Assembly: GCA_000002445.1 (NCBI GenBank)
Contig: AL929603.2
Location: forward strand, 224,001-288,000
DNA: 64,000 nucleotides
Direction of reading: 5' to 3'
DNA from: Trypanosoma brucei
Taxonomy: Eukaryota
Below are positions 8,504 to 52,300 of the stretch, one piece after another. A program made the position numbers and the translations under genes. The first letter of the stretch is position 1, and each line of letters begins with the position of its first letter. Below the pieces are notes generated by a model, which made no database searches, was not told where the DNA came from, and saw only the letters and a program-made list of their open reading frames with translations.

Positions 8504-9826
8504 TTAAAGAGAGCTCCACCGGTTAGAAAGAGTTCCAGTACCTGCAGAGGCATACGACACAACCGCCGACTTTTCGTCCAATACTGCAACGCCGGGAAGC
8601 GTTTTGCCCTCGAGGAGTTCCAAAGACGCACCACCACCAGTTGAAACATGAGACATGCGCTTCGCCTCACCGCTCAACTCAGCTGCACTTGCGCTGTCAC
8701 CACCACCGATGATACTCATGAGTCCATGCTCGTGAGTTCCTCGACCCATGGCTTTCGCAATTGCAAATGTACCTTTGGAATAAGGAACCATTTCAAATAC
8801 ACCCATGGGACCGTTCCAAATGGCGCTCTTACACTTCCCAATCGTCTGAACATATTTTTCAATAGTCTTGGGACCAATATCCAGAGCCATATGTCCTTCA
8901 GGGATGTTTTGATCCTCAGTTATCAATGGAGAATCCACAGCTTTGAATTCCGTGTGGCAAACATGATCAATTGGAAGAATAACCTGCACCTTGCGGTCCT
9001 CCGCCTTCTTCAGCAGGGATCGAGCAAATTCAAGTTTACTTTCCTCGCACTTCGATTTTCCAATGCTGTAACCCTGAGCCTTCAGAAATGTGTATGCCAT
9101 TGCACCACCAATTAAGAGATAATCGATGCGCTGCAACATGTTATCCAGAAGTTGGATCTTGTCGCTCACTTTCGCTCCACCAACGATAGCAACCAGCGGA
9201 CGCGGCGGGTTACCAAGTACCTTAGCGAAGTATGAAATCTCCTTCTCCATCAAATAACCGGCAGCACCGTTGCCCAAAATCTTTGGAATTCCGGTCATGG
9301 TAGCACTGTCACGGTGAGCTGTACCAAAAGCATCACTGATGTAAACATCACCATATGACGCAAGGATCTTGGCCATGGCTTCACGTTCTTTTGCCTTCTT
9401 GCTGCCCTCTTCTTTGTAAAAGCGTACATTTTCAAGCAGAACAACATCGCCCGGAGACATCTTAGAGACGACATCTGCAGCATTCAGGCAGTCAGGTGCG
9501 AATGTGACGGGCCTCAATAGCAGTTCGCTGAGGCGCTTGGCTACCGGTTTGAGTGTTGCCTTCTGTTGGAACCCGGGAACACCGCCAGTGCTCCGTATTT
9601 TGTCAGCTTGCGCCATGGGAATACCTTTCGGCCTCCCGAGGTGGCTCATGAGAACACAACTGCCGCCTTCTGTGAGAACCTTCTTGAGCGTTGGCAGAGC
9701 TGATCGGATTCGGTAGTCGTTGGTGATCTTACCGTTTTTCACGGGAACATTAAAGTCAACACGGATAAGAACCTTCTTTCCCTTAAGATCGCATTCATTA
9801 ATGCTCTTCTTCTCGTTAAGGGTCAT
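8504..9826 (-). CDS. PGKC: phosphoglycerate kinase, glycosomal isoform with a ~20-aa C-terminal extension ending -SSL (PTS1-like)
   Basis: The 440-aa ORF has the full PGK fold motifs: VLIRVDFNVP, SHLGRPKG, GGGASLELLEGK. It is about 95% identical in nucleotide sequence to the next copy, but carries a unique 3' extension encoding ...SAVVSYASAGTGTLSNRWSSL. Confidence 0.95.
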   Translation of the reverse strand: MTLNEKKSINECDLKGKKVLIRVDFNVPVKNGKITNDYRIRSALPTLKKVLTEGGSCVLMSHLGRPKGIPMAQADKIRSTGGVPGFQQKATLKPVAKRLSELLLRPVTFAPDCLNAADVVSKMSPGDVVLLENVRFYKEEGSKKAKEREAMAKILASYGDVYISDAFGTAHRDSATMTGIPKILGNGAAGYLMEKEISYFAKVLGNPPRPLVAIVGGAKVSDKIQLLDNMLQRIDYLLIGGAMAYTFLKAQGYSIGKSKCEESKLEFARSLLKKAEDRKVQVILPIDHVCHTEFKAVDSPLITEDQNIPEGHMALDIGPKTIEKYVQTIGKCKSAIWNGPMGVFEMVPYSKGTFAIAKAMGRGTHEHGLMSIIGGGDSASAAELSGEAKRMSHVSTGGGASLELLEGKTLPGVAVLDEKSAVVSYASAGTGTLSNRWSSL

Positions 9827-10175: not shown

Positions 10176-11438
10176 TTACTCCTTTTCGTCCAATACTGTA
10201 ACGCCGGGAAGCGTTTTGCCCTCGAGGAGTTCCAAAGACGCACCACCACCAGTTGAAACATGAGACATGCGCTTCGCCTCACCGCTCAACTCAGCTGCAC
10301 TTGCGCTGTCACCACCACCGATGATACTCATGAGTCCATGCTCGTGAGTTCCTCGACCCATGGCTTTCGCAATTGCAAATGTACCTTTGGAATAAGGAAC
10401 CATTTCAAATACACCCATGGGACCGTTCCAAATGGCGCTCTTACACTTCCCAATCGTCTGAACATATTTTTCAATAGTCTTGGGACCAATATCCAGAGCC
10501 ATATGTCCTTCAGGGATGTTTTGATCCTCAGTTATCAATGGAGAATCCACAGCTTTGAATTCCGTGTGGCAAACATGATCAATTGGAAGAATAACCTGCA
10601 CCTTGCGGTCCTCCGCCTTCTTCAGCAGGGATCGAGCAAATTCAAGTTTACTTTCCTCGCACATGGATATTCCAATGCTGTAACCCTGAGCCTTCAGAAA
10701 TGTGTATGCCATTGCACCACCAATTAAGAGATAATCGATGCGCTGCAACATGTTATCCAGAAGTTGGATCTTGTCGCTCACTTTCGCTCCACCAACGATA
10801 GCAACCAGCGGACGCGGCGGGTTACCAAGTACCTTAGCGAAGTATGAAATCTCCTTCTCCATCAAATAACCGGCAGCACCGTGACCCAAAATCTTTGGAA
10901 TTCCGGTCATGGTAGCACTGTCACGGTGAGCTGTACCAAAAGCATCACTGATGTAAACATCACCATATGACGCAAGGATCTTGGCCATGGCTTCACGTTC
11001 CTCAGTGCTCTTGCTGCCCTCTTCTTTGTAGAAGCGTACATTTTCAAGCAGAACAACATCGCCCGGAGACATCTTAGAGACGACATCTGCAGCATTCAGG
11101 CAGTCAGGTGCGAATGTGACGGGTCTCGATAACAATTCGCTGAGGCGCTTGGCTACCGGTTTGAGTGTTGCCTTCTGCTCGAACCCGGGAATACCGCCAG
11201 TGCTCCGCAGTTCTTTGCCTTCAGCCATAGAAACGCCTTTCGGCCTCCCGAGGTGGCTCATGAGAACACAACTGCCGCCTTCTGTGAGAACTTTTTGGAC
11301 GGCTGGAAGAGCTGATCGGATTCGGTAGTCGTTGGTAATATTACCATCATCCAGAGGAACATTAAAGTCAACACGGATAAGAACCTTCTTTCCCTTAAGA
11401 TCGCATTCATTAATGCTCTTCCTCTCTTTTAGTGACAT
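10176..11438 (-). CDS. PGKB: phosphoglycerate kinase, cytosolic-type isoform (420 aa)
   Basis: Canonical-length PGK. It is the middle copy of the tandem array and has no C-terminal extension. Confidence 0.95.
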   Translation of the reverse strand: MSLKERKSINECDLKGKKVLIRVDFNVPLDDGNITNDYRIRSALPAVQKVLTEGGSCVLMSHLGRPKGVSMAEGKELRSTGGIPGFEQKATLKPVAKRLSELLSRPVTFAPDCLNAADVVSKMSPGDVVLLENVRFYKEEGSKSTEEREAMAKILASYGDVYISDAFGTAHRDSATMTGIPKILGHGAAGYLMEKEISYFAKVLGNPPRPLVAIVGGAKVSDKIQLLDNMLQRIDYLLIGGAMAYTFLKAQGYSIGISMCEESKLEFARSLLKKAEDRKVQVILPIDHVCHTEFKAVDSPLITEDQNIPEGHMALDIGPKTIEKYVQTIGKCKSAIWNGPMGVFEMVPYSKGTFAIAKAMGRGTHEHGLMSIIGGGDSASAAELSGEAKRMSHVSTGGGASLELLEGKTLPGVTVLDEKE

Positions 11439-11769: not shown

Positions 11770-13299
11770 TTACTCCTTATCATCCAATACTGCAACACCG
11801 GGAAGCGTTTTGCCCTCGAGGAGTTCCAAAGACGCACCACCACCAGTTGAAACATGAGAAATACGTGCAGCTTCACCACAGAGTTCAGCCGCACCCGCAC
11901 TCTCACCACCACCGATGATACTCATGAGTCCACGTTTCTGAGTTCCTCGACCCATGGCTTTCGCAATTGCAAATGTACCTTTGGAATAAGGAACCATTTC
12001 AAATACACCCATGGGACCGTTCCAAATGGCGCTCTTACACTTCCCAATCGTCTGAACATATTTTTCAATAGTCTTGGGACCAATATCCAGAGCCATATGT
12101 CCTTCAGGGATGTTTTGATCCTCAGTTATCAATGGAGAATCCACAGCTTTGAATTCCGTGTGGCAAACATGATCAATTGGAAGAATAATCTGCACCTTGC
12201 GGTCCTCCGCCTTCTTCAGCAGGGATCGAGCAAATTCAAGTTTACTTTCCTCGCACTTCGATTTTCCAATGCTGTAACCCTGAGCCTTCAGAAATGTGTA
12301 TGCCATTGCACCACCAATTAAGAGATAATCGATGCGCTGCAACATGTTATCCAGAAGTTGGATCTTTTCGCTCACTTTCGCTCCACCAACGATAGCAACC
12401 AGCGGACGCGGCGGGTTACCAAGTACCTTAGCGAAGTATGAAATCTCCTTCTCCATCAAATAACCGGCAGCACCGTGACCCAAAATCTTTGGAATTCCGG
12501 TCATGGTAGCACTGTCACGGTGAGCTGCACCAAAAGCATCACTGATGTAAACATCACCATATGACGCAAGGATCTTGGCCATGGCTTCACGTTCCTCAGC
12601 ATTTTCACCGTTTTCTTCGCTGTAGAACCGTACATTTTCAAGTAACATAACATTTCCACGCTTTAACCGCGAAACCTCTACTCTGGCATCCAAGCAGTCG
12701 TGAGCAAAATATACATGTTGGCCGAGTAATTCGGCAAGCCTTACAGCAACTGGACGAAGACTGTATTGCTCTTCGTAGCCTGCACTAACACTCATCTGCG
12801 GTAACGCACTGTCTTTGTTTTCGTTTAAGTACTGCATAAGCAAAGATTTCTTCTCGTCCTCAGGAAGGCGCGCAAACAGCATTGTTTTTCCAGATTTCAC
12901 CTCAGGTGATATGTGCGTTGCCTCTTCCCGTGCACTGGATTTCGCTAATATTTTAACTTTCTCCTCTCCCGGTAGAACACTAAAAAACGCTGTTTTACCT
13001 TTGTTGTCGTGAAACTGAGCCTCGTGATATCGCCGTCTTATATCTCGCACACCCGCAACCATTGAAACGCCTCTGGGCCGTCCAAGATGGCTCAGGAGAA
13101 TACAAATACCACCCTGATCAATAACCCGCCGTATCGTTGGAATCGCCGCACGGATTCGATAATCGTTAGTAATATGGCCATTTTGCATAGGAACGTTGAA
13201 ATCGACACGCATAAGCACTCGCTTCGCCGTTAACGGCCAAACATCGCCCACAGACTTCTTCAGGCTTATGTTGTTCTTCGCATTCGGTGCAGTGGACAT
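11770..13299 (-). CDS. PGKA: phosphoglycerate kinase-like protein, 509 aa with a large internal insertion (56-kDa-type PGK)
   Basis: The N-terminal part has PGK motifs (VLMRVDFNVP, SHLGRPRG). An ~80-aa insertion follows (…RRRYHEAQFHDNKGKTAFFSVLPGEEKVKILAKSS…). The C-terminal two-thirds is nearly identical to the B and C copies. Confidence 0.92.
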   Translation of the reverse strand: MSTAPNAKNNISLKKSVGDVWPLTAKRVLMRVDFNVPMQNGHITNDYRIRAAIPTIRRVIDQGGICILLSHLGRPRGVSMVAGVRDIRRRYHEAQFHDNKGKTAFFSVLPGEEKVKILAKSSAREEATHISPEVKSGKTMLFARLPEDEKKSLLMQYLNENKDSALPQMSVSAGYEEQYSLRPVAVRLAELLGQHVYFAHDCLDARVEVSRLKRGNVMLLENVRFYSEENGENAEEREAMAKILASYGDVYISDAFGAAHRDSATMTGIPKILGHGAAGYLMEKEISYFAKVLGNPPRPLVAIVGGAKVSEKIQLLDNMLQRIDYLLIGGAMAYTFLKAQGYSIGKSKCEESKLEFARSLLKKAEDRKVQIILPIDHVCHTEFKAVDSPLITEDQNIPEGHMALDIGPKTIEKYVQTIGKCKSAIWNGPMGVFEMVPYSKGTFAIAKAMGRGTQKRGLMSIIGGGESAGAAELCGEAARISHVSTGGGASLELLEGKTLPGVAVLDDKE

Positions 13300-13833: not shown

Positions 13834-15543
13834 TCACTTCAGTTTGGAGTGTTTACCACCTTTTAGTTCCTTCTCCACACTTTGAAGCGATTCCCAAAGG
13901 GAGTCCGGCACCAATTCGCCCAACTCCTGCAACATTTGCCCTTGACACATGTAAAGTACAAAAACAGTTTCAAGAAGCATGCGTTCTTCTTCCCTCCCGA
14001 GAACGGCTTCTGCGCAACCCAGGCGGTTTTTGAGAGCGGCCGCAGACTGACACAGTAACTGAACGGTCTCGTGAGAGGACGGAAGGTATGGTGCATAACA
14101 TCCCAGTATAAGAGCGGCTTCGGGCGACTGTTGTCCGTATACTGCAACTCCCAAATGATATGCGTACTGCAATACGCTACTGGCGCGCTGGTCTCTCAGA
14201 AAATGTAGCAATCTGCCGCATTCTCTACCAACACGAACTGCTTCGGTTGTACGTCGGTCAGCATGCTGATCCGAATTGACAACACGAATCCAAAACTCGG
14301 CAGCCTTTCTAAGTTCTTTACCTTCATTGAGTGCGAGGAACGTCGCGCTCCTGTCGAGCCCCAGCAGTAAATCATTGCTCAACGACAGCTTACGAGCGTT
14401 AAACCACTTCAGCAGCGCCGTCGTGTGACGTACCAATTCGTGTGCTGTGCTGCTTCCCGCGGAGCGCCAACGCCGCGGCCACAACGCCTGAAGAACCTCA
14501 GCACTTCGCAGCAATATGGCATCATCTGCCCCTGTAAGGAGCGCATCGGCGATACAACTATGTATGAAGAGTGAGGAATCCTCCCACCTCTGGCCACAAA
14601 TCCCCAAACCAGTGAGAAACATAACAAACTCCTCTCCCCTCTCACTCCCCACAACAGAGTCTACAACAGCGTAAGGAATGTTTCGAGCGTCAAAGAATGC
14701 CAGGGTTCGCAGCTGTTTTGTTCCATCAGGAAAATGGGATTCAAGCTCATTGAGTGCAACATCAAGGAACACATTGAGCGCGTGGGAAACACTTATGGTA
14801 CCCTCCGCGCCAACCCCTTTTGCCAACAGCAAACTCCGCAGCTCTTCGGGACTGACGGAACCACTTTCCATGAGGCAACAGGCCAAATGCATAAGAATAG
14901 GAACACGACAGACAGCGTGCATCACATCTCTGGTAGAGGATGTGGCTCTCTCCTCTACGTTAATACCCTGTAAAAATTGGTCCGCATCAACCTCTGTGAA
15001 TGAGCCGGCTTTCAGAACGGGTATCTTTAGATTCCCGACTGGATCCGCACTGCTCGTTACCAGTGCGTACACATTCGGATGATCAGGTATTAGTTGAAGA
15101 ACGACCTGCGGGTTTGGCGTGCCATCTACAACGAGCAATACATCCTTCTCCTTCCGCCCCTTCATCGACTGAAAGAACTGTAAAAGATGCGACTCGAGTG
15201 AATCATCCCAGTCGAACCAATGAACACAAGTGAAGCGCCCACTGCGTCGTGCCCGGCTGCAGAACTCCACCGCGATAGTTGTTTTTCCAATGCCGTCCAG
15301 TCCCGCTATTACCTGACAATGTCGTCCCGCTAGTAAGTTCTGCCACAGTTGCATGATTTCCCTCTCGCGCCCAACCACACGGGACGCCACCGGGGCGTCG
15401 AAAAGAATGGGATCTGCCGCCGGAGGATCATCCGACATGCCGATGGTAGTTGCACCTCTTTTGACGCTGCAGCCAAAAGTAGTGGAAGCCGTTTGACCCC
15501 CCGGAAATTTTTTTACACACGCGCGACGAAGCAGCCGCCACAT
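13834..15543 (-). CDS. NB-ARC / STAND-family P-loop NTPase with a C-terminal helical (TPR-like) region (up to 569 aa; likely true start at the internal MSDDPP)
   Basis: The motifs appear in the expected order: VGREREIMQLWQNLL…VIAGLDGIGKTTIA (VGRE plus P-loop), KDVLLVVDGT (Walker B / kinase-2), YALVTSS (RNBS-B-like), CRVPILMHLA (GLPL-like). Confidence 0.75.
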   Translation of the reverse strand: MWRLLRRACVKKFPGGQTASTTFGCSVKRGATTIGMSDDPPAADPILFDAPVASRVVGREREIMQLWQNLLAGRHCQVIAGLDGIGKTTIAVEFCSRARRSGRFTCVHWFDWDDSLESHLLQFFQSMKGRKEKDVLLVVDGTPNPQVVLQLIPDHPNVYALVTSSADPVGNLKIPVLKAGSFTEVDADQFLQGINVEERATSSTRDVMHAVCRVPILMHLACCLMESGSVSPEELRSLLLAKGVGAEGTISVSHALNVFLDVALNELESHFPDGTKQLRTLAFFDARNIPYAVVDSVVGSERGEEFVMFLTGLGICGQRWEDSSLFIHSCIADALLTGADDAILLRSAEVLQALWPRRWRSAGSSTAHELVRHTTALLKWFNARKLSLSNDLLLGLDRSATFLALNEGKELRKAAEFWIRVVNSDQHADRRTTEAVRVGRECGRLLHFLRDQRASSVLQYAYHLGVAVYGQQSPEAALILGCYAPYLPSSHETVQLLCQSAAALKNRLGCAEAVLGREEERMLLETVFVLYMCQGQMLQELGELVPDSLWESLQSVEKELKGGKHSKLK

Positions 15544-16377
15544 AGCTCCTTTGAAGCGCTTTCCAACATCGAATCACGAAACAATAAATGCATATACGAG
15601 TGGGACGCACATACGGGGAAAGGACAAGGTGCAAGACAAAACACGTAACCACGGGGAAAATGGATGAAGGCACAGGGCTTTCGTTAAACGGCGACAAGGC
15701 AGGGGCAACCCACTTGTTTCCAGTTGGTTACAAAACGTGATGTATCGAAAATGTGTGTTCATAAAAAATAACAGGGAAAAAGATGTGCGCCCACACATGT
15801 CCGCATCGCCTCCTCCGTCTCTGCGCACAAAATAACAAATCTCTTCTGCCCCACGGTACGCAAATACATTCAGCGCTTTAAGGTAGAACGCACCCCAACG
15901 GCGGCGAATCCCAGTAACATTTCAGCGAGGAACGCACTCGCTCCACAGAGACCGTAACAGAGTTGAAGCTTGTACAAGTTTCCTCATAGGAGAATCAAAA
16001 AAATAAATATATATACGTTCTCAATACCCACAAGAAAAACGAGGCCCCCACAAAAATTAAAGTCTCTGGCGCGTCCAACACATCTTGTTTTCGCAGCATA
16101 ACACAGTCTCTGCAACTCTCAACCGATAACAATAGCAAACTTCCATCAACTTTGTGCGGCTGTAATGACATGACCAGAAAAAAAACTAATGGAAAGAGCA
16201 ATGCGGACGTAGGGGATACAAAGGGGGAACAAGCGCCCAAATAAGATACACGAGCGCACAAGTCAGCAGCGCTCAACACGCTATTTCATCATGGAAATAG
16301 ATCTACCGTGCCAAAGGGAGGTAAGAAATAGTGAAATTGGAAAGCTTCTCCACGCCTCAAGAAAAAAAAAATGCGTC

Positions 16378-17727
16378 TTATCCCTTTGAGGTAAAGGCCT
16401 TCCACGGTGCATTGCAGTCAATTAGTCGGCGGCTGGCGCCAACGTCCGTAGGGCGGTCGAAAGATTTCATGAAACGCTCAAACTGCTCGTCAACATGCTC
16501 GGCGGCAAGCTGCTGTGCACCCTCCTGCTTAATGAAGTGCATCTTGGCCATATTCGGGTTTACCTCTATCGAGGCTTCACCTATCACATTGTCGCATAAT
16601 CGATTAATGTCCTCGCCTTTCGTTTCCATCGCTTCACGAGCGCGCCTCGTGTCTTCAACACATTTTCGCGAGGCACGCTCGAACGCATCTTGTTCCTGAC
16701 GGATGCCGCCCTCGTATCCCAAATCCATCTTTGACGGGTAGTGCCCGGAGTTGCGAGAGACCCTTTCTGCATCCTTGGCATAGCTAGTATTCATATCACG
16801 GTGCAGTCGGTCCGCATCCTTCAACTTTGCGGCGCTGTAACAGTTCATGGCGACAGCACTCGCACCACCCTCCTCACTAAACACTTTTGTTTGTAATTCA
16901 TGGTTATCCTGCCAATCAACAGGATTTCCGTATTCATCGCTGCAGGTGCCACGCACCAGTGCACCACTATCCCAGATGCCAGTAAAAAGAAGGCGCGGCT
17001 CATTTGCCAAGTATGTTTGCGTTCCCTCACCATGAGCCCGGCCGTGCTCGTTAAACTCGCCATCATATATGTAAGTAGGAGCAAATAGTTGCCCACGCCG
17101 AATGCATCCGTCAACAAACTCTCCCACATAAACAAACCCACCATCAAGCTTCATCTTGCAGTTGGTCCCATGCAGCTTACCGGCGAAGAATGTCCCCTCC
17201 TGCTCCGCACCTGTGGTAAACGAAAGCCGTCCGCGTCCGTGAGGTTTGTTATTGTGAAACTCACCCTCATAAGTGAAGTCATGTTGCGTCAGTTTTCCTC
17301 GTACAAACGATTCATTCTCCAGCGTCCCCACAAACACTGTCTCCGTTGTACCGTTGGGAATACAAACCGTTCCCTCTACGAGGTCATCTTCGCAGAACCG
17401 TCCCTTGTAATGCGTGCCGTCTGCTAGCCATGCCTCACCCTCACCGTGCCGCTGCCACTTCGTGTTGAACTCACCGCAGTAAAGATCCCCATCATCCTCC
17501 AGTCGGCTTCCCTTCAGTGGAAACCCGTATTCCTCGTCAAACACACCGCTGTATGCCCGCCCATCAGGCATTTTAACACTCCCCTCAAGAAGCAAGTCCG
17601 GACGGCGGGGGTTCAACTTTCCCTGAAGCACCACTCCGTTGGGCAACCGAGAAACACAAAGACGCACCAACCGGCGCACAAACATCTCACTATACTTTAC
17701 CTTCAATTGTCTATCACATGGTAACAA
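16378..17727 (-). CDS. MORN-repeat protein (up to 449 aa; probable start at internal MPDGRAYSG)
   Basis: About ten consecutive YxGxFxxGxxHGxGxxxxxxG units fill the N-terminal two-thirds, for example YEGEFHNNKPHGRGRLSF and YDGEFNEHGRAHGEGTQTY. The C-terminal ~150 aa is charged and has no repeats. Confidence 0.85.
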   Translation of the reverse strand: MLPCDRQLKVKYSEMFVRRLVRLCVSRLPNGVVLQGKLNPRRPDLLLEGSVKMPDGRAYSGVFDEEYGFPLKGSRLEDDGDLYCGEFNTKWQRHGEGEAWLADGTHYKGRFCEDDLVEGTVCIPNGTTETVFVGTLENESFVRGKLTQHDFTYEGEFHNNKPHGRGRLSFTTGAEQEGTFFAGKLHGTNCKMKLDGGFVYVGEFVDGCIRRGQLFAPTYIYDGEFNEHGRAHGEGTQTYLANEPRLLFTGIWDSGALVRGTCSDEYGNPVDWQDNHELQTKVFSEEGGASAVAMNCYSAAKLKDADRLHRDMNTSYAKDAERVSRNSGHYPSKMDLGYEGGIRQEQDAFERASRKCVEDTRRAREAMETKGEDINRLCDNVIGEASIEVNPNMAKMHFIKQEGAQQLAAEHVDEQFERFMKSFDRPTDVGASRRLIDCNAPWKAFTSKG

Positions 17728-40383: not shown

Positions 40384-43300
40384 CTAATGCTGCACATTCA
40401 ACAATTCAAACCACTGACGAAGAGCATCTGCAATAGCACTTGGAAGAGTCTCAAGTTCCCTCACGATGAGATAGTGTGGAAATGGAAATTCTTCCATGTA
40501 GGACCGCCGCACGACACTGCCATCCCTGAATTCCACAAGCTGCATGTCGAGCACGGAGTTTGATTTCACGCGCTGCAGCCTCGAGTCACGCTCTGCTTTC
40601 AGTCGACGCATCCTCTGGGCAGGAGTCATCCCCGCGAGTTCTTTGGCTGAAATAGGAGCGAGTGGCGCGGCCCCATTGTTATCGTTTTCACCTCCTGAAG
40701 CCTTGACATCCAGAAGGACAAAGACAACCATCTGGTGATTTTCTTCTGCACGCATGAGCAGCTTTCTCAGTTCCATACGATCTTCCGTGATTTGCCCATC
40801 ACTAATGATGAACATCATCTGCTGAAGGCGCTGAGTGCTGGAGCGAATTTGTCCATTCATACGCCTCCGTGCATCATCAAGGTAGTCCAACGTCGTTTCA
40901 AGGAGCAATTTAAGGTTTGTTGATTTCTGCGCAAAAGTGATTTCGCTAAATGCACGCGGACCGCTCTCGGCTACGAAGGGTTCATGCATCTCGTGTACAA
41001 TGCGCGTCTCTTTTCCGAAACACGCAATCCCCAGTTCACCTACTTCAAGCTGCTGAAGGGCCTCGGCGATAAGAGCAACGGCGCGACAGGACATTATTCC
41101 GGCATTATTGCATTGCATGCTCAACGAGTCATCAAGGGCAACAAGGATTTGGTAACTGCGTTTATTCGGTTTCGTGCGGCGTAGCCATATTCGATCTTTC
41201 TTAAACTGTGAAGCTATATACGGAATGATGCGTTTCATATTGAGCCGCTTACCGGTTTTGTAGTCACCTTGTAACTTGTCAGCGACCGTCGGACTAAGTA
41301 TAAGACGTAACTGCTCACAGAGTTGGTGAGAAAGGGTGTGAACTGCTGCTGTTTGCTCCTGCCAAAGTTCTCTTCCACGGCACAACTTGTCGTACTCCCC
41401 GCCGCCGGTTGAATCTGCCGTCTTGTCGTCGTCGTCGAAACTGTCCTCTTCCTCTTCATTATCATTTCTGATTTTCGACGCAACTTTAACATGTCGCCTC
41501 GCCTTTTTCTTCTCTGCATCCTCCTCGTCACCCTCTTCTTCACTACTTTCCGTGTCTACGCTGACTTCTACTGCATGTTTTCGGTGCCGCGGCGGCGTGT
41601 CCTCATCATTACCTTCGTCAAGTTCTTCAGAGGTACCACTTTCGCTGAAGGGGTCGGCGACTTCCCTCTGTTCCGGAAGGTTGTTAGTAGCCTCCGTAGG
41701 AACAACTGGTTTCTCATCCGTTGCGGCCATGCCCTCCTCCTCTCCCTCTTCATCGAACTCAAATTCGTCGACAACTTCCTTCCGGTTACTCTGTTGTTCG
41801 TTTTGTTGTTGGTTATCAGCTTCCCTATGTTTCTTGACCTCAACACGCTTGTTAAGGTTAAGCTGTTGAACACTTCGCTGGTGGCGCTCGACGGCTTCCT
41901 TTATTGCTCTGTACGGATTACGTGACGTGTTGTGTCGCTCGGCGTTATCACGGTGCTGGGTTCGTTCATCCCGATTTTGCCGCTTCCAGTTTCGGCCGGC
42001 TTCGTCCTGTTGTTCTTCCTCCCCCGGTTGTTGCTCCTCCGTGGTGCCCGCCTCTTGCTGTGCGGCACGAGGACGCTTTTTACTCTCCTTCTCTCGTTCT
42101 TCAGTCGCCTCTTCACCGGCGTGTTCATCCTGCTGACCGCCATTGTAAACATTCTCATCAGCCCAGTCGTCCTCCTTGTCTTCACAAAAATCGCCAGAAT
42201 CACATGTTCCTTCGCCCTCGTTGTCGTCCTTCCCATTGTCTTCGCCCTCTATGTCCCGTGCATTGTCTGATAAAACCGAGGAAGCCTCACCGCTCCCGTT
42301 ATGAGCCTCATCGTCGCTATCTCCAGCGTTGTCGTCGTCATCACCTTCACTTCCCTCACGCTCCCCCTCATCACTGCAGGTATTGCTCTCCCCGTCACCA
42401 TCCCCTCCGTCATGGCTATCATTTTCGCCACCTTCAAGTACATCAGCTGCAAGATCATGGTCCTCACCTTGCTGCTGCTCTTCGGCCTCACGTATTGCCG
42501 CCTCGCGGTTTTCGAAGTTTGCCGTTTCCTGATCACCCTCATTGCCATCTATGCTCTCCTCTTCGTTGGCGAGTTCGTCCTCCGGAACATCATCTGCGTT
42601 ACCTCCATCATCGCTATCCAGATCATTCCCTTCGTTCGTTTCCTTTTTCATACGTTTCCGCTCCTGTACTTCTTCGCCATCGACACTTCCCATTTCTCTC
42701 TCGCTCTCATCACCGTCATCCTCGTCCTCCTCGTCATCATCGTCGCGCCGTTCCTTTGGAGCAGCGAAATCCGTTTCCACATCAGCAGCGTTGTCCTCAC
42801 CATCACTAGACCCGTCGCCCTTATCCTGTTGTTTCTCCTCCTGCTCCTCATCATTCTTGTCCTTTGCACTCATGAGTTGGTCTTCGTTCTCGATCTGGTC
42901 TGTCACATCTTTCTCACCTTGGCCGTCGTCCATACCCGTACCATCAAGTTGATTGCCATCTCCGCTTTCGCCGTCACCGTCCCCATCCTCCTCCTCCTCC
43001 TCTTCCGACTTGCAAAAACCTTTTCGAAAAAGAATACACAGCAGTCGCGAGACTACGAGAGTTAGGTGAGACTGTGCCAATAACGCCCGAGTAGCCCCCT
43101 GAAGAAGGAGACCCACATGCTCCACGCACACGTCAAGTCGCGACAATAGTTGAGTTCGAGCTGCCGAAGATATTTTACGGTCGTGGGTTTCGTCGTGAAG
43201 CAGTGTGTGAAGCGACGAATGTGCAGTCCGAGCTTCTGCAAGCAGCTTGCCAACGGTTTCAGCGTACCTTCTGTAAACCAGGTCTGTCCCCCCACCACCT

Positions 43301-46300
43301 GTGGAGTTTTCCTCCTTCTGTTGGTGCCCTGGAGAAGATGCAAAAAAGTCAGTAAGACCATCATTCTTCGCGAACGCGCTCTCTAAGCTCTCAACCATCA
43401 CTGTGACTTTTCCTTCCCATTGCGCGCCCACCTCCGTACGGTTTCGCTTGGCAGACACTGCCCTGGTCGGCATCGATGCCGTCACAGCACAATTGATGGA
43501 CTCACCTAGTAAGTCCAGTGATTCGCATAACTTGGAGGATGCACTATCCACACAGCCAACACCCGTGCTGCAGAGCCGTGAACACACTAAACGGACACGA
43601 CCGTAGAGAGCACCATATTGCTCCATGATGGCGTCTGCAATGGGTATTTCCGCGCGCCGCTGGCCTTCAGTTGTACAACATAATTTCCACAGCTCCTCCG
43701 TCAAGCAGTACAGCTCGTCTATGGTGGAACGTGAGCCCTCTAAATCAAAGATATGCTCTTGTAACATCCAACGAACATCGTACACGAAACTCTGAAGTTG
43801 TACACACATTTCCATTGAAGCGTGCAGCTGTTCAGCACCTGTTGGCACCGCGCGGTCCTCGCATGTGCTGATAAAATCACGCAGTAGAGCAATCTGCTGG
43901 TGCACTTCGCAAAAATTACCTATCAATTCTGCTTCTTGAACGGCAACGGCGAACAGCGATTCGGCAGTACCCGCTCCGCGTTTCACTTGGGCGTCGCTGA
44001 GATCTTTGTGAGGATGCTTTTCCGCGTCGCGCATGCGCTGGAGCCAGCGTACACCACGGTAATATTCCTGCGCAGCTTCCTCAATCCGCTTGCTAGCGAC
44101 AAGGTGTTTGTGAATATTACGACAAGGAAGGAGAGCACTACTTGTAGCAAACAACTCCTCCCAACCGGAAACCTGCAGAGCGTGCGTATGCGGCACACCC
44201 TTCTCTTCCATGACGGTAAACAGCGTCTTCAAGGCGCGTAACTTTTGGTTTTGTGGAACACTGCGCGCCTGCAGAGCGTTAACACGCTCAATGATTTCGT
44301 TAGCAGCGAATTTAAGGAACTCTACACCCTCCGACATGTAACCAGGAAGTTTTCCTTCGGCAGAGTCAGCATCTTCGCCTCCCGGAGGGGCTTCACACCC
44401 CGAAACCGCAGTTTTCGCCTTGGCATTTATTCTACCCATGCGCGATCTCTTCAGACCTATATCCACAGCGCCTTGGGCACCCTGCTTCTTATTTTTCTTC
44501 CCGTTCTTTTCCTCCAGCTGCAGTGAAGCCAGGGTGAACCCCATGGCCTGGTCATCCTCACATCGTTGCTCCTCCGTCGATATGATCTGCAGCACGGGCA
44601 TCCGCAGCACGTCTTCAAGTGATGCGAGACCGCGACCCATTTTTAGATGAGATTTTTCAGCAGTGGCACGGACCGCATAATAGGTAGAGTCCTCCCAGCG
44701 CATAATGCGAGTAAATTCCTCCATATCCTCCTCGATGGGTGAAAGCGCAATCCGCAGCTTCTGCTCCACTAACTGTGAGTACTGAGTAAAGAAATCCGTC
44801 AGGTGACACGAGGCGTTTGCAAGGGGAAACGATGAGCGCCTCCCCGCAGCGGCAAGATGAAACGCAAAAGCCTTCAGCAACCGCAGGCGGGCATGGAAAT
44901 CACCACAACGGGCGCCCCACATGAAGTCCATGCAGTAGTGAAAGAACTTGGCATAACGGTCCTGTAGCTCTTCCATTGGAATTGGTTGCTGGACGCCGGT
45001 AAGATCACATAGGCTGAACCATACCTTACCAACTTTCAGTTCCCACTCTTCTCGTTTCGCCGCAAACACCTGTCCCCAGCAATGCAATTCGAGCCTCCGC
45101 CAGCGCAACACAAACGTGGACAGATGTGTCATATGATCCATTATGGACGTATCACGGGAGGCATTGCGTTCCCATTCGTAACATTCTCTCAGAAGAATTT
45201 CACACCCCGTCATAACCTTCATCAACGGTGTGGTTAACACCGGTAGTGCTGCCAAGCAAGTGGCAATGCGGGAGCAGCGACGAAGTGAAGGCGTGTCTGG
45301 ATAAGCGGCGCTTAGCTCTGTGATGGCCTGCATGAGGCTTAGTAAGGAAGGATTGAAAGCCCGGAGCTCGGATGGTGCGGGGTCCGTGAAAATATTAAAC
45401 TTGATGGCTTTTGCTTCACTGAGGGGTGTCTCACTGGAAAAGAGACACTTCGACAACAATGTTGCCCGGGCGGCGAATCCGCCGGCCATCATTTGTTCGT
45501 CCTCTGCACGCACAAGCGACCCATCCTCATAAACACCACTGCATCCCCAGCCGCGCAGCTCCTTGGAAACAACGTCAAAAACGCCTTTGAATGCCTCCAA
45601 ATGCCTGTCGCCGCAGAAAGCACCACCGTCGTTAAGCTCAAGCAGACTTTCAAAGAAGTGATAGTGCGTGTCAAGTAGCCGCTGCATGTACTTTGCACCT
45701 TGTGGCCCCGACAACATTAAGCGGGCATGACGGCCCGTCGACAACGCAGACACCTCTGGCTTCGGAGCAGGATTTAAATCAACTTCGTCATTTGTGGCAT
45801 CTTCCATCTTATCGTCCTCGGCGTCGCGGGCACGAATAAACTCCTCTTCGTAACTAGGAAAAAGTTGTTTCAACAAACCCATGTGCGCTTCATCATCGCC
45901 TTCGATAATAACAGCCTTTTCCTTGTAGAGCACTGATAACTCCTGCTCGCTACGTTCTTTGGCCTCAAGTTCCTCAACCGCACGGTACAGCTCGCGGTAT
46001 GAATCGAAAAGCTTTTCAACAAAGTCGCGCTTGATCACTCGGGCTGGAGTGCACTGAACGAGCAGCAGGCAAGAATCAAGATACGCGAGGCGTTGTTGTA
46101 ACGACTGCGACCCGGAAGAAGGCAATACCGGTGAATTAATACTGGTTGATGGAAAATGCATCATCCGCACGGCATCTGGCACGCTAAAAATCATAGACTT
46201 CCGAACTGGCCGAGTTTGCATATAGTAGCCGATGTATGCAGCCAACGTTGCCGAAAGTGCTGGTTCCGAGACGGTGAGAGTCACGTCTTCGTACCCTCCA

Positions 46301-49300
46301 TAATTATCCAACACATCGATGAACTGCTGATAAACGACTTCACTCCATGCTTTCCGCGCAGCGGCAGTTTCTGACCTTCGCTGCGCGACCACCACCTCCA
46401 GCCGACTATCGCTCAGCATGGAACTGCACGTCTGATGAAGCAAATCCACAAGTTGTGCGAATTTCGCGCCCGTCGAGTCGGGCCTCACGACGACCTTCTC
46501 TAACGCCCTTGCCAGGTGAGCTTCCTCCTCTGCTTGCAACCCCTGCAGAAGCAACCTCTGCCGACTACAACTGCCTCTCATTGATAATTCTTCTGACCAA
46601 CTAAACGCCGCATCTAAGCGCGAGAAATATACCAGCTCATTCCTTGCGACTTCTCTCTTTACTAGCCACTTGTACATGGGGTCAATTGGTGTTCTTGGAA
46701 CGAGCATTCGGCACCGCAACACCCCAACAAGAGCTATGCGACGCAGGGAATCATCCGGAGTGAAATCATTGCTGTGCACTATCATTGATAGCACCGGACG
46801 CAAGGCATCAATAAGTGGATTTCCTTGAGTTTCGGCTAGGAGAGTGCGCAGTTTGCTTAGTAATTGAACTAACATGGCAGTGGAGGGTTCTTCCGGAACT
46901 GAAAACCCATTCGTGTTCAGAGCACGATGCGGGACTTGGCACATCTCCAGTAGAGATAGAGCATCAGTCAGACAGTTTGCCTCCCATTCTTCAAATGGGT
47001 CCACCTTCGGCATAGGCAGCACACGGCAAAACTCCAACAGGTTATCAAGAGCACGCACATGGGGATTACTCTTTGAGTCGATTGCTGCGACCGACACCTC
47101 TGCGGCATAGTCAAGTGCGTCGCTAGCAAGACTTGTCCAAGACCCACAAAGAATGTGACGCCCACCGTTCAACCCGTACCGCGATAAGAAGTTAGTTGTA
47201 AGTAGGGGCACCAGTGAAGATAGAGCGGCAGCATCACGTTCCACAACAAGCGGTATGGTTGTTACCTCCCGCCACAGGGTCACATTGAGCTGTGGTACAA
47301 CGCGCAACTTCGTACAGTAAATATTAACAAACTCGAGAACCTCGCACTGCAGACGTTTCGCAACAGGCACAGAGCAGTTCGCCCTCAACTGTTGTGCCCG
47401 AAGAACCAGTGAGAATTCAGCCCGAAATATTGCACTGTCCCAGAGAGATTTCAGCAAACATTCGTGCTTTTCATGTAACGCGCTGGTAGCCGATGCCTTC
47501 CATGCAACCAGCGCCGCTCGCTCTTCCGCTGTCGTTATATGAGGGCGAACGATGCGTTTTCGAATGTTCAACCCCTCCAACACGAGCTGAAATGGAAGTC
47601 CAAGATAATTGCGCAATGACGATAAAAATTCATCTACGGCGCCAAAAAAGATGTCGGCGGTTGAGCCCAACTGCTTCTTTATCACAGAACGAATAAGTAA
47701 TACGTTCGTCAGCAGCGAAACGTAGTTGTCCACATTAATTTGATATTGAGGGAACGACGAACACACCAAACGCGCCAGTGGCCCCAGTAGCCGAAAGATC
47801 CGTTGCTGAAGAGACGGAGAAGAAAGCACCTCGACTACCTTTCCCATCGCGGAAAGCACTCGGTTAAAAGAGTTGTTGACCACCGGCGAGTCTGAGATAA
47901 AAATGTTAGCGTCACGAAGGGCTTTTAGTGACGACGCGTGTGGCCCCAACACCGGTGCGGAGGAGCACCAGATGGAATCTAGGTGGGCAGCGGCATCAGT
48001 TGTGGGCTGCAGAGATATAAGCGAAAGCACATCATTCATGCCCTGTTCAGACAGAGCATCCCCAATGGTCCAACAAAGTAATTGTCTCCGGGATTCAAAC
48101 AAAATATGGCTCAGAACACCGTCGGCACATTGATCAAGCACAAAATAAAGCACTAGATCTGATAGAGAATGACATTTTTGGTGACTTCCCTCGGCGGTTA
48201 ACTGAGCCCTTAGAGCCAACCCACTGCGAAGGACACGAATGCGTACTAGCGCTTCTTCTACGCTTTCTAGGGCCGATCCACTACCCTCACTGCTTCCAGT
48301 CACGGAAAGGGCGCTCAGAAGATCTGCTACGGAGGGAAAACACCTGCATGCATCTGACTCCCCTGCGGCCACAAGCATATCCAAATTCGTGGCCACCTCA
48401 TCCTTTCGAACATTCCAATGTCCACAACGGTTGTCAATGTATTTGTGACGAATAAACATCTTGAGGTCCTCCAGGTTGCTTGCCGCTGAAAGCATTGAAG
48501 CAGTCTTCACTAGGGTAAAAGTGTTAGGCGTACCTGAAGCTAGAGCGTCTGAAAGCTGAGTAGACATAGGCAAGGCAGAATCAGCGCTGAACAGACTGCG
48601 CAGAAACTCACGGTGGTAGCGGTTTAACATCTCAAGGTGCTCTACGCTTCGGCATGACGTACTTGCTCCGCTAATCGCGAGACTCTCCAGTGAAGGTATT
48701 TCCACTGGATGGACATAGATTTCAACCGCTCGGTTTCTCATAGCCCTCGACACCTCACCATACTTAGGATCGAGGGTCATGAAGAGACGAAAATTCGGGT
48801 GAGGTCGCACGACACGAACTTGGCCGTCAACAAGTCCCTGTTCATTCACAGAAAGCATACCGTTAGGCTCAACAAGTGGGTTGAGTCGATCCAGCACGCT
48901 GGCATTGCAGTAATTAACGTTGTCAAGAACAAGCCAATGACCACTTTGCATGGCCTCCAAAATCAACGAATCGCTCCACTCGAATTGTCCCTGTTTACCC
49001 TCCACCTGATCAAAACCGCCCAGCAGGTCAACAGTGTCACAACTGGCGTTCATAGAGAAGGTTAGCAACCGCGCTCCCGCGAGTGCCGCTGCGGCTCGAA
49101 TGCAAAATGTTTTACCGGCGCCGGTCGGGCCCGCCAATATGCAGAGTTGATTCTGCTCGGCACATGTAAGCAATGAGCGAACAACCCCCGCCTGAGAAGG
49201 GAGAAGCATCAAAGAGTTGTACGCGGTATCAATGAAAGGATTTGATCCCTGCACTCTGCGTGTCAGGAACCGAGACCCAAAGTGCACTGCATCATTTGCG

Positions 49301-52300
49301 ATGAGAAAGTGGGATTCCTGAAACGTGAGGCCACACATAGCGGAACTCCCAAATATCTTCTCAACCAACTCAACTGTTCTCTTCCGGTCAGTGTCAGTGC
49401 GCATACGTTGTGTGAAGAGCATGTCGACAAACTCACACGGCATGTCCATCACGCCGTATGCTTCCATCAACTTGGCCCAGCGTAAGATGTCACGCAAGTT
49501 GAACTCCCAAGGACTCCCGCGAACACCAAACGCACGGCGAACGACCACCTCTCGGTGGAGTTCATCTACGAAGCCCACCATCTTGCAGAGGGTTGCCTCA
49601 CCGATACCAGGAGCGACGGCAACAACAATACGCATAAGGTCTTCAACGTCAAAAGGCTCGATTCTTACCCTTGTGAACCTGTTTAGGAAGCTGCGAGGGA
49701 GACCCTTTCTCCCACCTCCTTCTGCTAGAGGGTTTTGACAAGCAAAAACACGAAAACCATCTGCAGCCTGAAACTCCTCACCCAACTCCGGAATGAAAAC
49801 CGTAGAGCGATGATCGAGAAGGGCGTTGAGGCCTTCCAGGACAGATTGACTTGCGAGATTCAGTTCGTCCAGGATCACCCACCACCCATTCTTAAGCGCA
49901 TGTAGGAGAACGCCGTCTGACCACGAAAATTGCGGACCGCCGGAGTCTCCAGAGGAGGGACATGGTAAAAACGTGCCGAAAAGATCCATTATATCGGTTT
50001 GCTCGCTCAAGTTGACACGGACAACATGTTTCCGCAGGGCACACCCCAGTGCTTCGACGATACTTGTCTTACCAACACCAGGGCTTCCTTCCAGCAGAAT
50101 TGCACGGCGCATAATGCCCGCGCGAACGAGTTTGGATAGGTTTCGACTGGTAGAGGGCGCGCCGAAGAAAAAACGCCCCTTCATCTCAGGAGGTAACGTC
50201 GGTTCCTCCAGTGTGTCGAAGAGCTCCCAGAAGGGCTCACGCAGACAATCACTGCTCACTTTACAAACTTCCCTCACTTTCGCTATGAGTGCCTCACGCA
50301 AACCGTGTGTTCCCATGTCAGATTGCCCAGTGCCCACACCGACACCGTCGAGAATGACGGCGTCAAGACCATGGACAAACGACACTTGTTCGTCACAATG
50401 ACCATCGGCAGCATTCATGAAACTAACCCAGCCAATTATGTCGCGAATGCTTATGTGCTGCGGCACCCCTGCAACTGAACATACGCTCGCTGCATCACAC
50501 AGTAGTGAGGCCATATGCGCCGCCCAGTGCGAAAGATTTTGATTCAACCGCTTGGAAAGAATAAGGGTCACCTCTTCACGCTCCACTGTTGGTCTGACAT
50601 AAATTTCAGTAAACCTGTTTCGAAGAGCGGGCGACAGCTCGCGCTTTCCAAAATCTCCACCAGGGTTCATTGTTGCAAGAATGCGAAAGTCCTCATGGGC
50701 GAAAATGACATCTGCTGTGCTCTTTTCAGCAAGGGTTACTGTTCGACCCGGTTCAAGGACACTATTCAACCTCTCAAGGACGCTATCCTCAGCAAGGGAG
50801 ATTTCGTCCAAAACAAATACCCCTCCTTTTAGCATGCATTCAACCAGCGGGCCATTTCGCCATTGAAAAATTGCGCTGCTTTGCTGATTTGGAAGAGCAG
50901 GTCGAAGGCTCCCAAGAAAGTCAGCAGCTTCACTATGCTGATGACAGTTGACAATACTAAGCCGACGTTGCAAAATTGCTGCCCAAACTTGGCAGACTGT
51001 TGTCTTGCTGCTTCCCGTCTCCCCCACCAACAACACAGGTTCTCGGTGAAAAAGACAAATACCTACCACAGTAAATAAACGCAACATGGACTCAGTCCAC
51101 ACGATACCGAATTCCTCCGCCACACGACTTTCCACATGCTTGTAGTGTTCGGCAACGTACGGCCAATGATGTGGTGAATAAATGTCACCTTCGTTGAGCT
51201 CAGTTTTTGTGATCGACTCAATAACATCCTTAACGATCTGGCGCTCCTCAGTCTTCCGGCAACGCTCTACCAACAAGAGAAACCCATGTTCTGCCATTTC
51301 CTGATATGTCCCAGGGCACCGCTCAGCCCAACGAAAAAGATCCCGCGGAGTCACGAAACCGTGACGACCTGCAAATACCCGAGAACCCTGACGTCGTATT
51401 TGAAGAGTGGTCATGACCTCCACCATTTTTTCGGCAAAACTCGGACTAAGAGAGTACCGTTGACAAAGAATGGTGCACAGCTCTGTGTTGGGTATATCAT
51501 CGACGGTGATTTCCAAAAATCGATTACGAAACGCTCTTGATAAGAGCTTGCGGCCCCCGTACACACCTGCTGGGTTCTGAGTGGCAAATATGCGCAGATG
51601 TGGATGAGGTTTTATTGTTTCTTGAGTGTCTGCGACAAAAAGTTCATGGTTATCATCAAGTAAGCGATTGAGGGCCTCCAGGACTTCAGTGGGGGCAAGA
51701 TTCAGTTCGTCTAACATAATCCAATACCCATTGCGCACGGCGTCAACTAAAATACCGTCTACAAAGCGGAGTTTACCGCGTTCATCCGAAATGTAGTGAC
51801 CCACATATTCCTGAATTTCCGTACTCTCGTGGTTATTTATTCTGATGAACTTGTGCCCCGTAAACTCGGCAAGGTACTTCACCATGGAGCTTTTCCCGGA
51901 TGATGTTGGACCCTCTAACAGTACCGGCCGATCCGCGAACACTGCTCGAGCGACGTTCAACAAGTGCCCTTTAACACTAGGTGTTAAAATAAAGGACTCA
52001 TCCTTGCGAGGCTCCTCCGATCCAACAGGTAACCAAATGTGCTCATACGCCACAAAACGTCCCCCAGAAGGGCAACGCGGCAGGGTCGGTCGCGGTGGCT
52101 CTCCATTGCCAAATACATGTTTCTTAATTAATTGTTCAACAATAGAGTGAAACTGCCGCTCCAGAGGAGTTGCAAATCCCAACATTAAACCGTCAAACAA
52201 AGCGAGGGCAAACCCATACTGCGATGTGGCTTTCCGCACATAAGTAAGAGCACGTGTCAAAGTCCTCAAACTAACTGTGGGTGGCTTCGTCCCGCCATCC

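Follow-up and report, generated by a model that had tools for sequence, protein, structure and literature searches.

The gene analysed here lies within a stretch of 64,000 nucleotides of the Trypanosoma brucei genome (GenBank assembly GCA_000002445.1, contig AL929603.2, positions 224,001 to 288,000 of the forward strand; hereafter the window), and its open reading frame (ORF) is that of Tb927.1.730, encoding the protein catalogued as NDUTB13. Profile comparisons and structure modelling support the assignment of NDUTB13 as a divergent STAND P-loop protein of the NB-ARC type whose C-terminus is TPR-like. On balance, we lean towards the view that it is a mitochondrial, effector-less member of the NB-ARC-TPR proteins that binds nucleotide with poor turnover and acts as a scaffold or regulator docked on matrix-arm proteins of complex I, either as an accessory subunit or as an assembly factor.

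According to the ORF list, the gene is complete from ATG to stop, occupies positions 13834..15543 of the minus strand and encodes 569 amino acids plus the stop; an in-frame stop codon is located 11 codons 5′ of its ATG. An exact-sequence look-up revealed that the translation is identical in every residue to XP_001218776.1 / CAJ15983.1 / UniProt Q4GZE5, a protein of Trypanosoma brucei brucei TREU927; the published primers for RNA interference (RNAi) of Tb927.1.730 fall within the ORF (15296-15315 and 14860-14879). A published list of complex I proteins specific to euglenozoans includes XP_001218776.1 under the name NDUTB13 (PMC12699882, Table 1), with no homologue found in Diplonema or 11 other diplonemids and no Euglena counterpart in the list (PMC12699882). 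The function of the protein, which a preliminary description of this DNA had called unclear, is therefore already catalogued as that of a putative, mitochondrial complex I subunit. Orthologues from T. cruzi, T. vivax and Leishmania are likewise annotated as "putative NADH-ubiquinone oxidoreductase complex I subunit", and PF00931 is already precomputed for those of the Leishmaniinae. Both the gene and the domain call are thus present in public resources; the NB-ARC call is not new and adds nothing to public annotation, since the UniRef name of Q4GZE5 ("NB-ARC domain-containing protein") and the NDUTB13 listing predate it. Literature searches that paired NB-ARC with trypanosomes, with Leishmania or with complex I brought up nothing relevant, and no paper was found that joins the NB-ARC nature of NDUTB13 and complex I.

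The family assignment was examined with the T. brucei protein and with its orthologues. A set of 27 orthologues with 33-60% identity was assembled from Trypanosoma, Leishmaniinae and deeper kinetoplastid-like assemblies. Pfam matches of the T. brucei protein alone were all sub-threshold and confined to residues 55-125, with AAA_16 on top (25.8 bits vs a cut-off of 32.6) and nSTAND3 at 18.2 bits. When the 28 aligned family sequences (T. brucei plus the 27 orthologues) were scanned, NB-ARC was found in 21 of them (E<0.01, best 1.7e-9), AAA_16 in all 28 and NACHT in 16. In addition, the NCBIfam model for FxSxx-COOH-system NB-ARC-TPR proteins (NF040586) matched residues 129-296 of the T. brucei protein with E 6.6e-21. 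From the PDB, the family profile retrieved Streptomyces AfsR (E 1.5e-6), with weaker matches to MalT, Apaf-1 and a plant TIR-NLR, while a single-protein phmmer search of the same database gave only a dynein AAA module at an uninformative E of 0.4.

An exhaustive profile search of 1.8 billion representatives yielded about 30 orthologue clusters with E<1e-30, followed by a sharp gap and then by thousands of generic STAND proteins starting at E ~3e-17. The nine best hits scanned from just past the gap were mostly of one kind: eight of these passed the NB-ARC cut-off and carried TPRs of the KLC/NPHP3 type (TPR_10/TPR_12), three of the eight having a TIR or metallophosphatase N-terminus; the ninth showed C-terminal WD40 repeats, and the 25 families listed for it did not include NB-ARC. 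The alignment of the kinetoplastid family with 14 NB-ARC-positive proteins by hhalign gave a probability of 100% (E 2.1e-41, 459 columns, residues 39-509), and it brought into register the FVGRExEL, P-loop, LLVxDN, LITTR, LGYLPLAL and HRLVQ motifs, continuing into the first TPRs. These data, together with the predicted fold, bear out the NB-ARC-type STAND ATPase family proposed in the preliminary description; the outcome that it had named as speaking against its proposal, a P-loop region belonging to another NTPase class and devoid of an NB-ARC signature, was looked for and did not occur.

The structure of NDUTB13 was predicted with AlphaFold2 from the orthologue alignment (pLDDT, the per-residue confidence measure, 86.6; pTM, its global counterpart, 0.82), and only residues 1-44 (pLDDT <50) and the last four residues were disordered in the model. 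The three-domain fold of nucleotide-binding domain (NBD), helical domain (HD1, or ARC1) and winged-helix domain (WHD, or ARC2) was present, followed by a tail with an antiparallel helical-hairpin solenoid fold. In a Foldseek search of the PDB, closed Apaf-1 ranked first (E 6e-9, TM ~0.5, ~520 columns), and CED-4, the plant proteins NRC2/ZAR1/NRC4, Avs4 and NLRP3 came next, so that the predicted structure also supports the NB-ARC layout. The C-terminal part matched TPR domains of the KLC type, the tail itself being a KLC/LGN-type match. The TPR-like C-terminus that had been described from the letters alone thus stood as regards its helical solenoid fold and its KLC-type matches, but not as a family match: no Pfam TPR family hit the T. 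brucei protein at E<=10, and no 34-residue repeat signature was detected by hidden Markov model (HMM). As for the N-terminus, where an effector domain had been considered worth looking for, none is present. A membrane-protein reading was rejected because the sole hydrophobic 19-residue window (Kyte-Doolittle 1.73) corresponds to the buried GLPL helix. In some deep-branching members of the family (P0031, P0048, P0059; 815-886 aa), long low-complexity insertions were observed in the NBD/HD1 region.

In P-loop/STAND enzymes, the second acid of Walker B and the sensor-1 Arg are needed for hydrolysis. Analysis of the T. brucei sequence revealed that the motifs of the preliminary description are all present and in the order given there, namely VGRERE (57-62), GLDGIGKTTIA (81-91), LLVVDG (136-141), ALVTSS (160-165) and RVPIL (213-217), with an all-helical C-terminus at 341-561. 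Residue conservation was counted in 53 family members (51 for some positions), and these motifs were found to be conserved well beyond chance. Within Walker A, K87, S/T88, G84 and G86 were each retained in 51/51 sequences; the first Asp of Walker B, D140, in 53/53; P215 and L217 of the GLPL-type motif V214-P215-I-L217 in 53/53 and 52/53, respectively; and the MHD-type His, H328, in 49 of the 53. Position 141, that of the second Walker B acid, was occupied by D in 34 members, G in 13, N in 4 and S and Q in one each, the acid being lost in 19/53, and T. brucei has Gly. At position 165, which corresponds to the sensor-1 Arg of 'TTR' (R265 of Apaf-1), Arg was found in none of the 53 sequences (S29, N6, P5, T5 and others), with Ser in T. 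brucei.

Because the P-loop Lys and Ser/Thr, D140, the GLPL Pro and the MHD-type His are near-invariant, nucleotide binding is predicted to be kept. On the other hand, hydrolysis is predicted to be weak or absent, since no family member has a sensor-1 Arg and Trypanosoma has lost the second acid of Walker B. Two further motifs of the helical arm, WPRRWR and RECGRLLHFL, are strongly conserved in the NDUTB13 family. Conserved cysteines were also noted in the NBD (C95 in 45/51 and C106 in 50/51) and in the helical arm (C442 in 38/53 and C482 in 32/53), and one possibility is that they make up a redox pair or a site for a metal or an Fe-S cluster.

The first 35 amino acids contain seven K/R and no D/E. 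Orthologues share the M[WR]R[LF] start but not M36, and poly-pyrimidine runs are located at positions −117 and −81 from the ATG, in a tract followed by AG dinucleotides that is a candidate trans-splicing signal and would place the first ATG inside the mRNA. Furthermore, Tb927.1.730 is part of the T. brucei mitochondrial protein set 'MitoCarta' (PMC4445814, Additional file 1). On the grounds of the conserved start, the charge composition, the disorder in the model, the pyrimidine tract before the first ATG and the membership in the mitochondrial set, the first ~35-44 residues are best regarded as a conserved, predicted cleavable matrix-targeting presequence. The same features contradict the earlier suggestion that the N-terminal 35 residues may not be translated. 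This predicted presequence takes the position that an effector domain holds in other STAND proteins.

Taking these features together, the following course of events is proposed. The presequence would direct the import of NDUTB13 into the mitochondrion, and the mature protein would then consist of the nucleotide-binding, helical and winged-helix domains and a degenerate TPR-like arm. Such a protein would descend from an NB-ARC-TPR architecture that is common in bacteria, with the effector domain absent and a targeting signal in its place. It would still bind adenine nucleotide, with poor or no hydrolysis, and would act as a nucleotide-stabilised scaffold or regulator and not as a cycling, oligomerising switch. 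The TPR-like arm, together with the surfaces formed by WPRRWR and RECGRLLHFL, would dock onto matrix-arm proteins of complex I.

The complex I label of NDUTB13 reportedly comes from the affinity purifications of Panigrahi in 2008 and Acestor in 2011. A co-fractionation map of procyclic T. brucei obtained by glycerol gradient and ion exchange paired Tb927.1.730 with Tb927.11.16870 (NDUFA2) (PMC4798371), and placed it in a nine-protein cluster that also holds NDUFA2 and NDUFA6 (Tb927.10.14860) (PMC4798371). The evidence for a complex I role of NDUTB13 consists of this co-purification and co-fractionation.

Several observations weigh against the proposal of a complex I-docked NB-ARC protein. Regarding the family, the Pfam NB-ARC (PF00931) search that the preliminary description had suggested as a check gave 17.1 bits for the T. 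brucei sequence alone, below the gathering score of 23.5 and over residues 60-121 only, and both single-sequence and profile searches of PDB chains found no match to the NDUTB13 family except generic STAND proteins. The predicted weakness of hydrolysis is read from aligned residues. As for complex I, the co-fractionation is not a fully independent result, as Tb927.1.730 belongs to the literature-derived gold standard of that study, in its 'RespiratomeComplexI' list (PMC4798371). Mass spectrometry of the NADH-dehydrogenase activity bands of three trypanosomatids detected trypanosomatid-specific subunits, of which NDUTB13 was not one (PMC8312217). A 2026 study by complexome profiling and cryo-EM reported no complex I holoenzyme, the ~66 proteins annotated as belonging to complex I being distributed across a wide range of masses (PMC13631411), and our search returned no structure of a trypanosomatid complex I. 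Finally, growth defects in bloodstream forms are reported by two RNAi screens, of which the chromosome-1 screen described severe growth retardation.

Complex I of trypanosomes has been described as disputed and dispensable. The bloodstream-form defects, if real, hint at a role of NDUTB13 beyond complex I, because complex I is described as dispensable; the RNAi data conflict, since in targeted procyclic RNAi of Tb927.1.730 growth was not reduced. This opens the way to another explanation, namely that NDUTB13 resides in the matrix and received its 'complex I subunit' label through an artefact of co-purification or through no more than a loose association, while it mainly serves another matrix process needed in bloodstream forms. 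The doubtful standing of complex I itself, the failure to detect NDUTB13 in its activity bands, the lack of co-migration of the complex I proteins as one complex and the dependence of the label on affinity purifications all speak for such a role. However, the glycerol-gradient and ion-exchange data group NDUTB13 with NDUFA2 and NDUFA6, the procyclic RNAi result fits a dispensable partner of complex I, and an alternative partner is not known, so that we regard this explanation as a serious one and still unlikely.

A related and more speculative idea, which we consider rather improbable, is that an effector-less NB-ARC protein captured by the kinetoplastid mitochondrion became a matrix adenine-nucleotide sensor that gates how the matrix arm of complex I, or another essential matrix module, is assembled or works. 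If true, it would explain the bloodstream-form growth defects despite the dispensability of complex I, and NDUTB13 would parallel mammalian NLRX1 by convergence and be the first STAND protein incorporated into a respiratory-chain assembly.

A more classical possibility is that NDUTB13 is a true STAND switch, in which a ligand at the TPR-like arm triggers ADP-to-ATP exchange and ring formation, as in Apaf-1, MalT or Avs proteins, giving rise to a signalling or cell-death platform in the trypanosome mitochondrion. This would agree with the full NBD-HD1-WHD-repeat architecture, with the conservation of the P-loop, the GLPL motif and the MHD-type His, and with the fact that the best structural matches are resting or ADP-bound forms of Apaf-1, NRC2 and MalT; however, the closed conformation of the AlphaFold model says nothing on the state in the cell. 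The only N-terminal element is a targeting-like peptide, the sensor-1 Arg is missing throughout the family, and more than a third of its members, T. brucei included, have lost the second acid of Walker B. Moreover, the gene occurs as a single copy in conserved synteny and evolves slowly, in the manner of an orthologue and not of immune NLRs, and the PADLOC defence models do not match NDUTB13. Such a switch therefore appears quite unlikely, and the regulated oligomeric switch suggested in the preliminary description loses weight with the absence of an effector domain and the degenerate hydrolysis site. A specifically antiviral-STAND (Avs) reading was dropped after PADLOC gave no match to the T. 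brucei protein and only weak P-loop matches for orthologues. Lastly, the notion that NDUTB13 is not an NB-ARC/STAND protein at all, and that it resembles one by chance as a generic AAA+ ATPase or another kind of P-loop ATPase, could appeal to AAA_16 as the top (sub-threshold, residues 55-125) Pfam match and to the lone dynein AAA module in the phmmer search, but is effectively refuted by the NCBIfam FxSxx_TPR, hhalign and structural matches and can hardly be maintained.

The preferred reading, that of a scaffold or regulator on complex I proteins, can be set beside several known systems. The closest homologues are bacterial-type NB-ARC-TPR proteins (AfsR-type, NF040586, and TIR/metallophosphatase-NB-ARC-TPR), which have the same motif order and are homologous from GRExE through the NBD, HD1 and WHD into the first TPRs. 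In contrast to them, NDUTB13 has a mitochondrial-type presequence in place of an N-terminal effector or DNA-binding domain, TPRs too degenerate for Pfam and no sensor-1 Arg, and is nuclear-encoded, eukaryotic and kinetoplastid-restricted. Among the nearest outgroup proteins, most are metagenomic sequences and one is from Chryseobacterium, and they do not settle the source of any recent bacterial transfer. With Apaf-1, CED-4 and the plant NLRs (PF00931), identity is only 13-15%, and NDUTB13, which is below the Pfam cut-off, lacks the CARD, CC or TIR effector and the WD40 or LRR sensor of these proteins; relative to Apaf-1, the sensor-1 residue R265 is replaced by Ser and, in T. brucei, the second Walker B Asp by Gly.

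Mammalian NDUFA10 and NDUFA9 offer a precedent, as enzyme-fold proteins that were recruited to complex I in an accessory role and have retained a nucleotide-binding pocket, and the N-terminus of NLRX1 is an addressing sequence and not a signalling domain. NDUFA10 and NDUFA9 have folds unrelated to that of NDUTB13 (deoxynucleoside-kinase-like and SDR) and are seen bound in solved structures, whereas NDUTB13 has never been visualised on complex I. NLRX1, a mammalian STAND NTPase, localises to the mitochondrial matrix (PMC10837482, PMC5855099), and an interaction with the electron transport chain has been proposed for it (PMC5855099). It provides the closest functional analogy, and only an analogy, drawn from the literature. 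NLRX1, a metazoan protein of the NACHT clade that has LRRs and neither NB-ARC nor TPR, is no orthologue of NDUTB13; beyond the STAND class, this literature-based comparison showed no sequence relationship between the two proteins.

NDUTB13 thus poses a puzzle, that of a STAND-fold P-loop protein with a degenerate site in the trypanosome mitochondrion, which co-fractionates with complex I matrix-arm subunits and is growth-relevant in two bloodstream-form screens. Resolving its role would help to tidy the inflated list of ~66 kinetoplastid 'complex I' proteins, and its study could reveal a lineage-specific, parasite-only regulator. The features of the gene and of its neighbours are collected in Table 1.

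Table 1. Features of the NDUTB13 gene and neighbouring genes, with positions in the window
Feature	Position	Strand	Remarks
Pyrimidine-rich tract, then AG dinucleotides	15612..15670	minus	70-125 nt 5′ of first ATG
Predicted mitochondrial presequence and linker, residues 1-44	15412..15543	minus	
Nucleotide-binding domain, residues 48-180	15004..15402	minus	P-loop alpha/beta fold; includes pre-P-loop VGRERE 57-62
Walker A / P-loop, G81-L-D-G-I-G-K87-T-T89	15277..15303	minus	Aligned to Apaf-1, AfsR and dynein P-loops
Walker B, L136-L-V-V-D140-G141	15121..15138	minus	Aligned to Apaf-1 LLILDDVWD and to LLVxDN
ALVTSS, residues 160-165, RNBS-B / sensor-1 strand	15049..15066	minus	Aligned to Apaf-1 LLTTRDKSV and to LITTR of NB-ARC-TPR proteins
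HD1/ARC1 helical domain, about residues 184-245		minus	Contains GLPL-type motif
CRVPIL, residues 212-217, GLPL-type motif	14893..14910	minus	Aligned to AfsR GFLPLAI, Apaf-1 GSPLVV and LGYLPLAL
Winged-helix domain, about residues 252-340		minus	Helices, then beta-hairpin 291-327 in the model
LFIHSCIA, residues 325-332, MHD-type histidine motif	14548..14571	minus	End of winged-helix domain; aligned to MalT CYHPLF and to sHRLVQ of NB-ARC-TPR proteins
Helical arm, residues 341-561	13861..14523	minus	About ten helices; degenerate TPR-like solenoid
WPRRWR, residues 355-360	14464-14481	minus	Family-specific motif, helical arm
RECGRLLHFL, residues 440-449	14197-14226	minus	Family-specific motif, helical arm
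MORN-repeat ORF	16378-17727	minus	Pfam MORN; directly 5′ of NB-ARC gene
PGK ORF (PGKA-like)	11770-13299	minus	Pfam PGK
PGK ORF (PGKB-like)	10176-11438	minus	Pfam PGK
PGK ORF (PGKC-like)	8504-9826	minus	Pfam PGK

Regarding the genomic context, the three PGK ORFs gave Pfam PGK matches with E 1e-141 to 1e-147, and the order of transcription is MORN, NB-ARC gene, PGKA-like, PGKB-like and PGKC-like. The gene had been described as lying immediately downstream of the PGK array. The adjacency was confirmed, but the direction holds only for plus-strand coordinates, as in terms of transcription the NB-ARC gene lies directly 5′ of the PGKA-like ORF. On chromosome 20 of L. major, the arrangement of long ORF, MORN, NB-ARC and PGK is kept, and it was also found on a contig of a distant relative that carries a 36%-identical protein. 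The NDUTB13 gene is single-copy and kinetoplastid-restricted and behaves like an orthologue, unlike a diversifying immune receptor. It has to be noted that adjacency within a kinetoplastid polycistron does not imply a common function. In one EukProt model (gene12979-8830_t, P0194, 1148 aa) the NB-ARC protein is joined to PGK, most likely through a merged gene call across these conserved neighbours.

Judged by its position, the MORN-repeat ORF is presumably Tb927.1.740. A 2026 preprint named Tb927.1.740 a PIP5K-like protein and found it to be the top-enriched co-immunoprecipitation partner of UQCRC2 when complex III assembly was impaired. The two adjoining genes, MORN and NB-ARC, may therefore both encode mitochondrial proteins linked to the respiratory chain.

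The PGKA-like ORF encodes 509 aa, in comparison with 420 and 440 aa for the other two PGK copies, and its Pfam PGK match covers residues 23-497 for a model of 379 positions, which implies a large internal insertion. Elsewhere in the window, an uninterrupted minus-strand ORF of 4600 aa was found at 40384-54186, with a size that suggests a giant protein of the dynein-heavy-chain class or similar. From about 4 to 55 kb, every large ORF lies on the minus strand, and plus-strand ORFs are found at 1-1675. Between ~58000 and 64000, the GC skew passes from negative to positive, and the AT skew is strongly negative near 60-64 kb. The pattern of skew and strand at the edges of the window fits polycistron boundaries or strand-switch regions.

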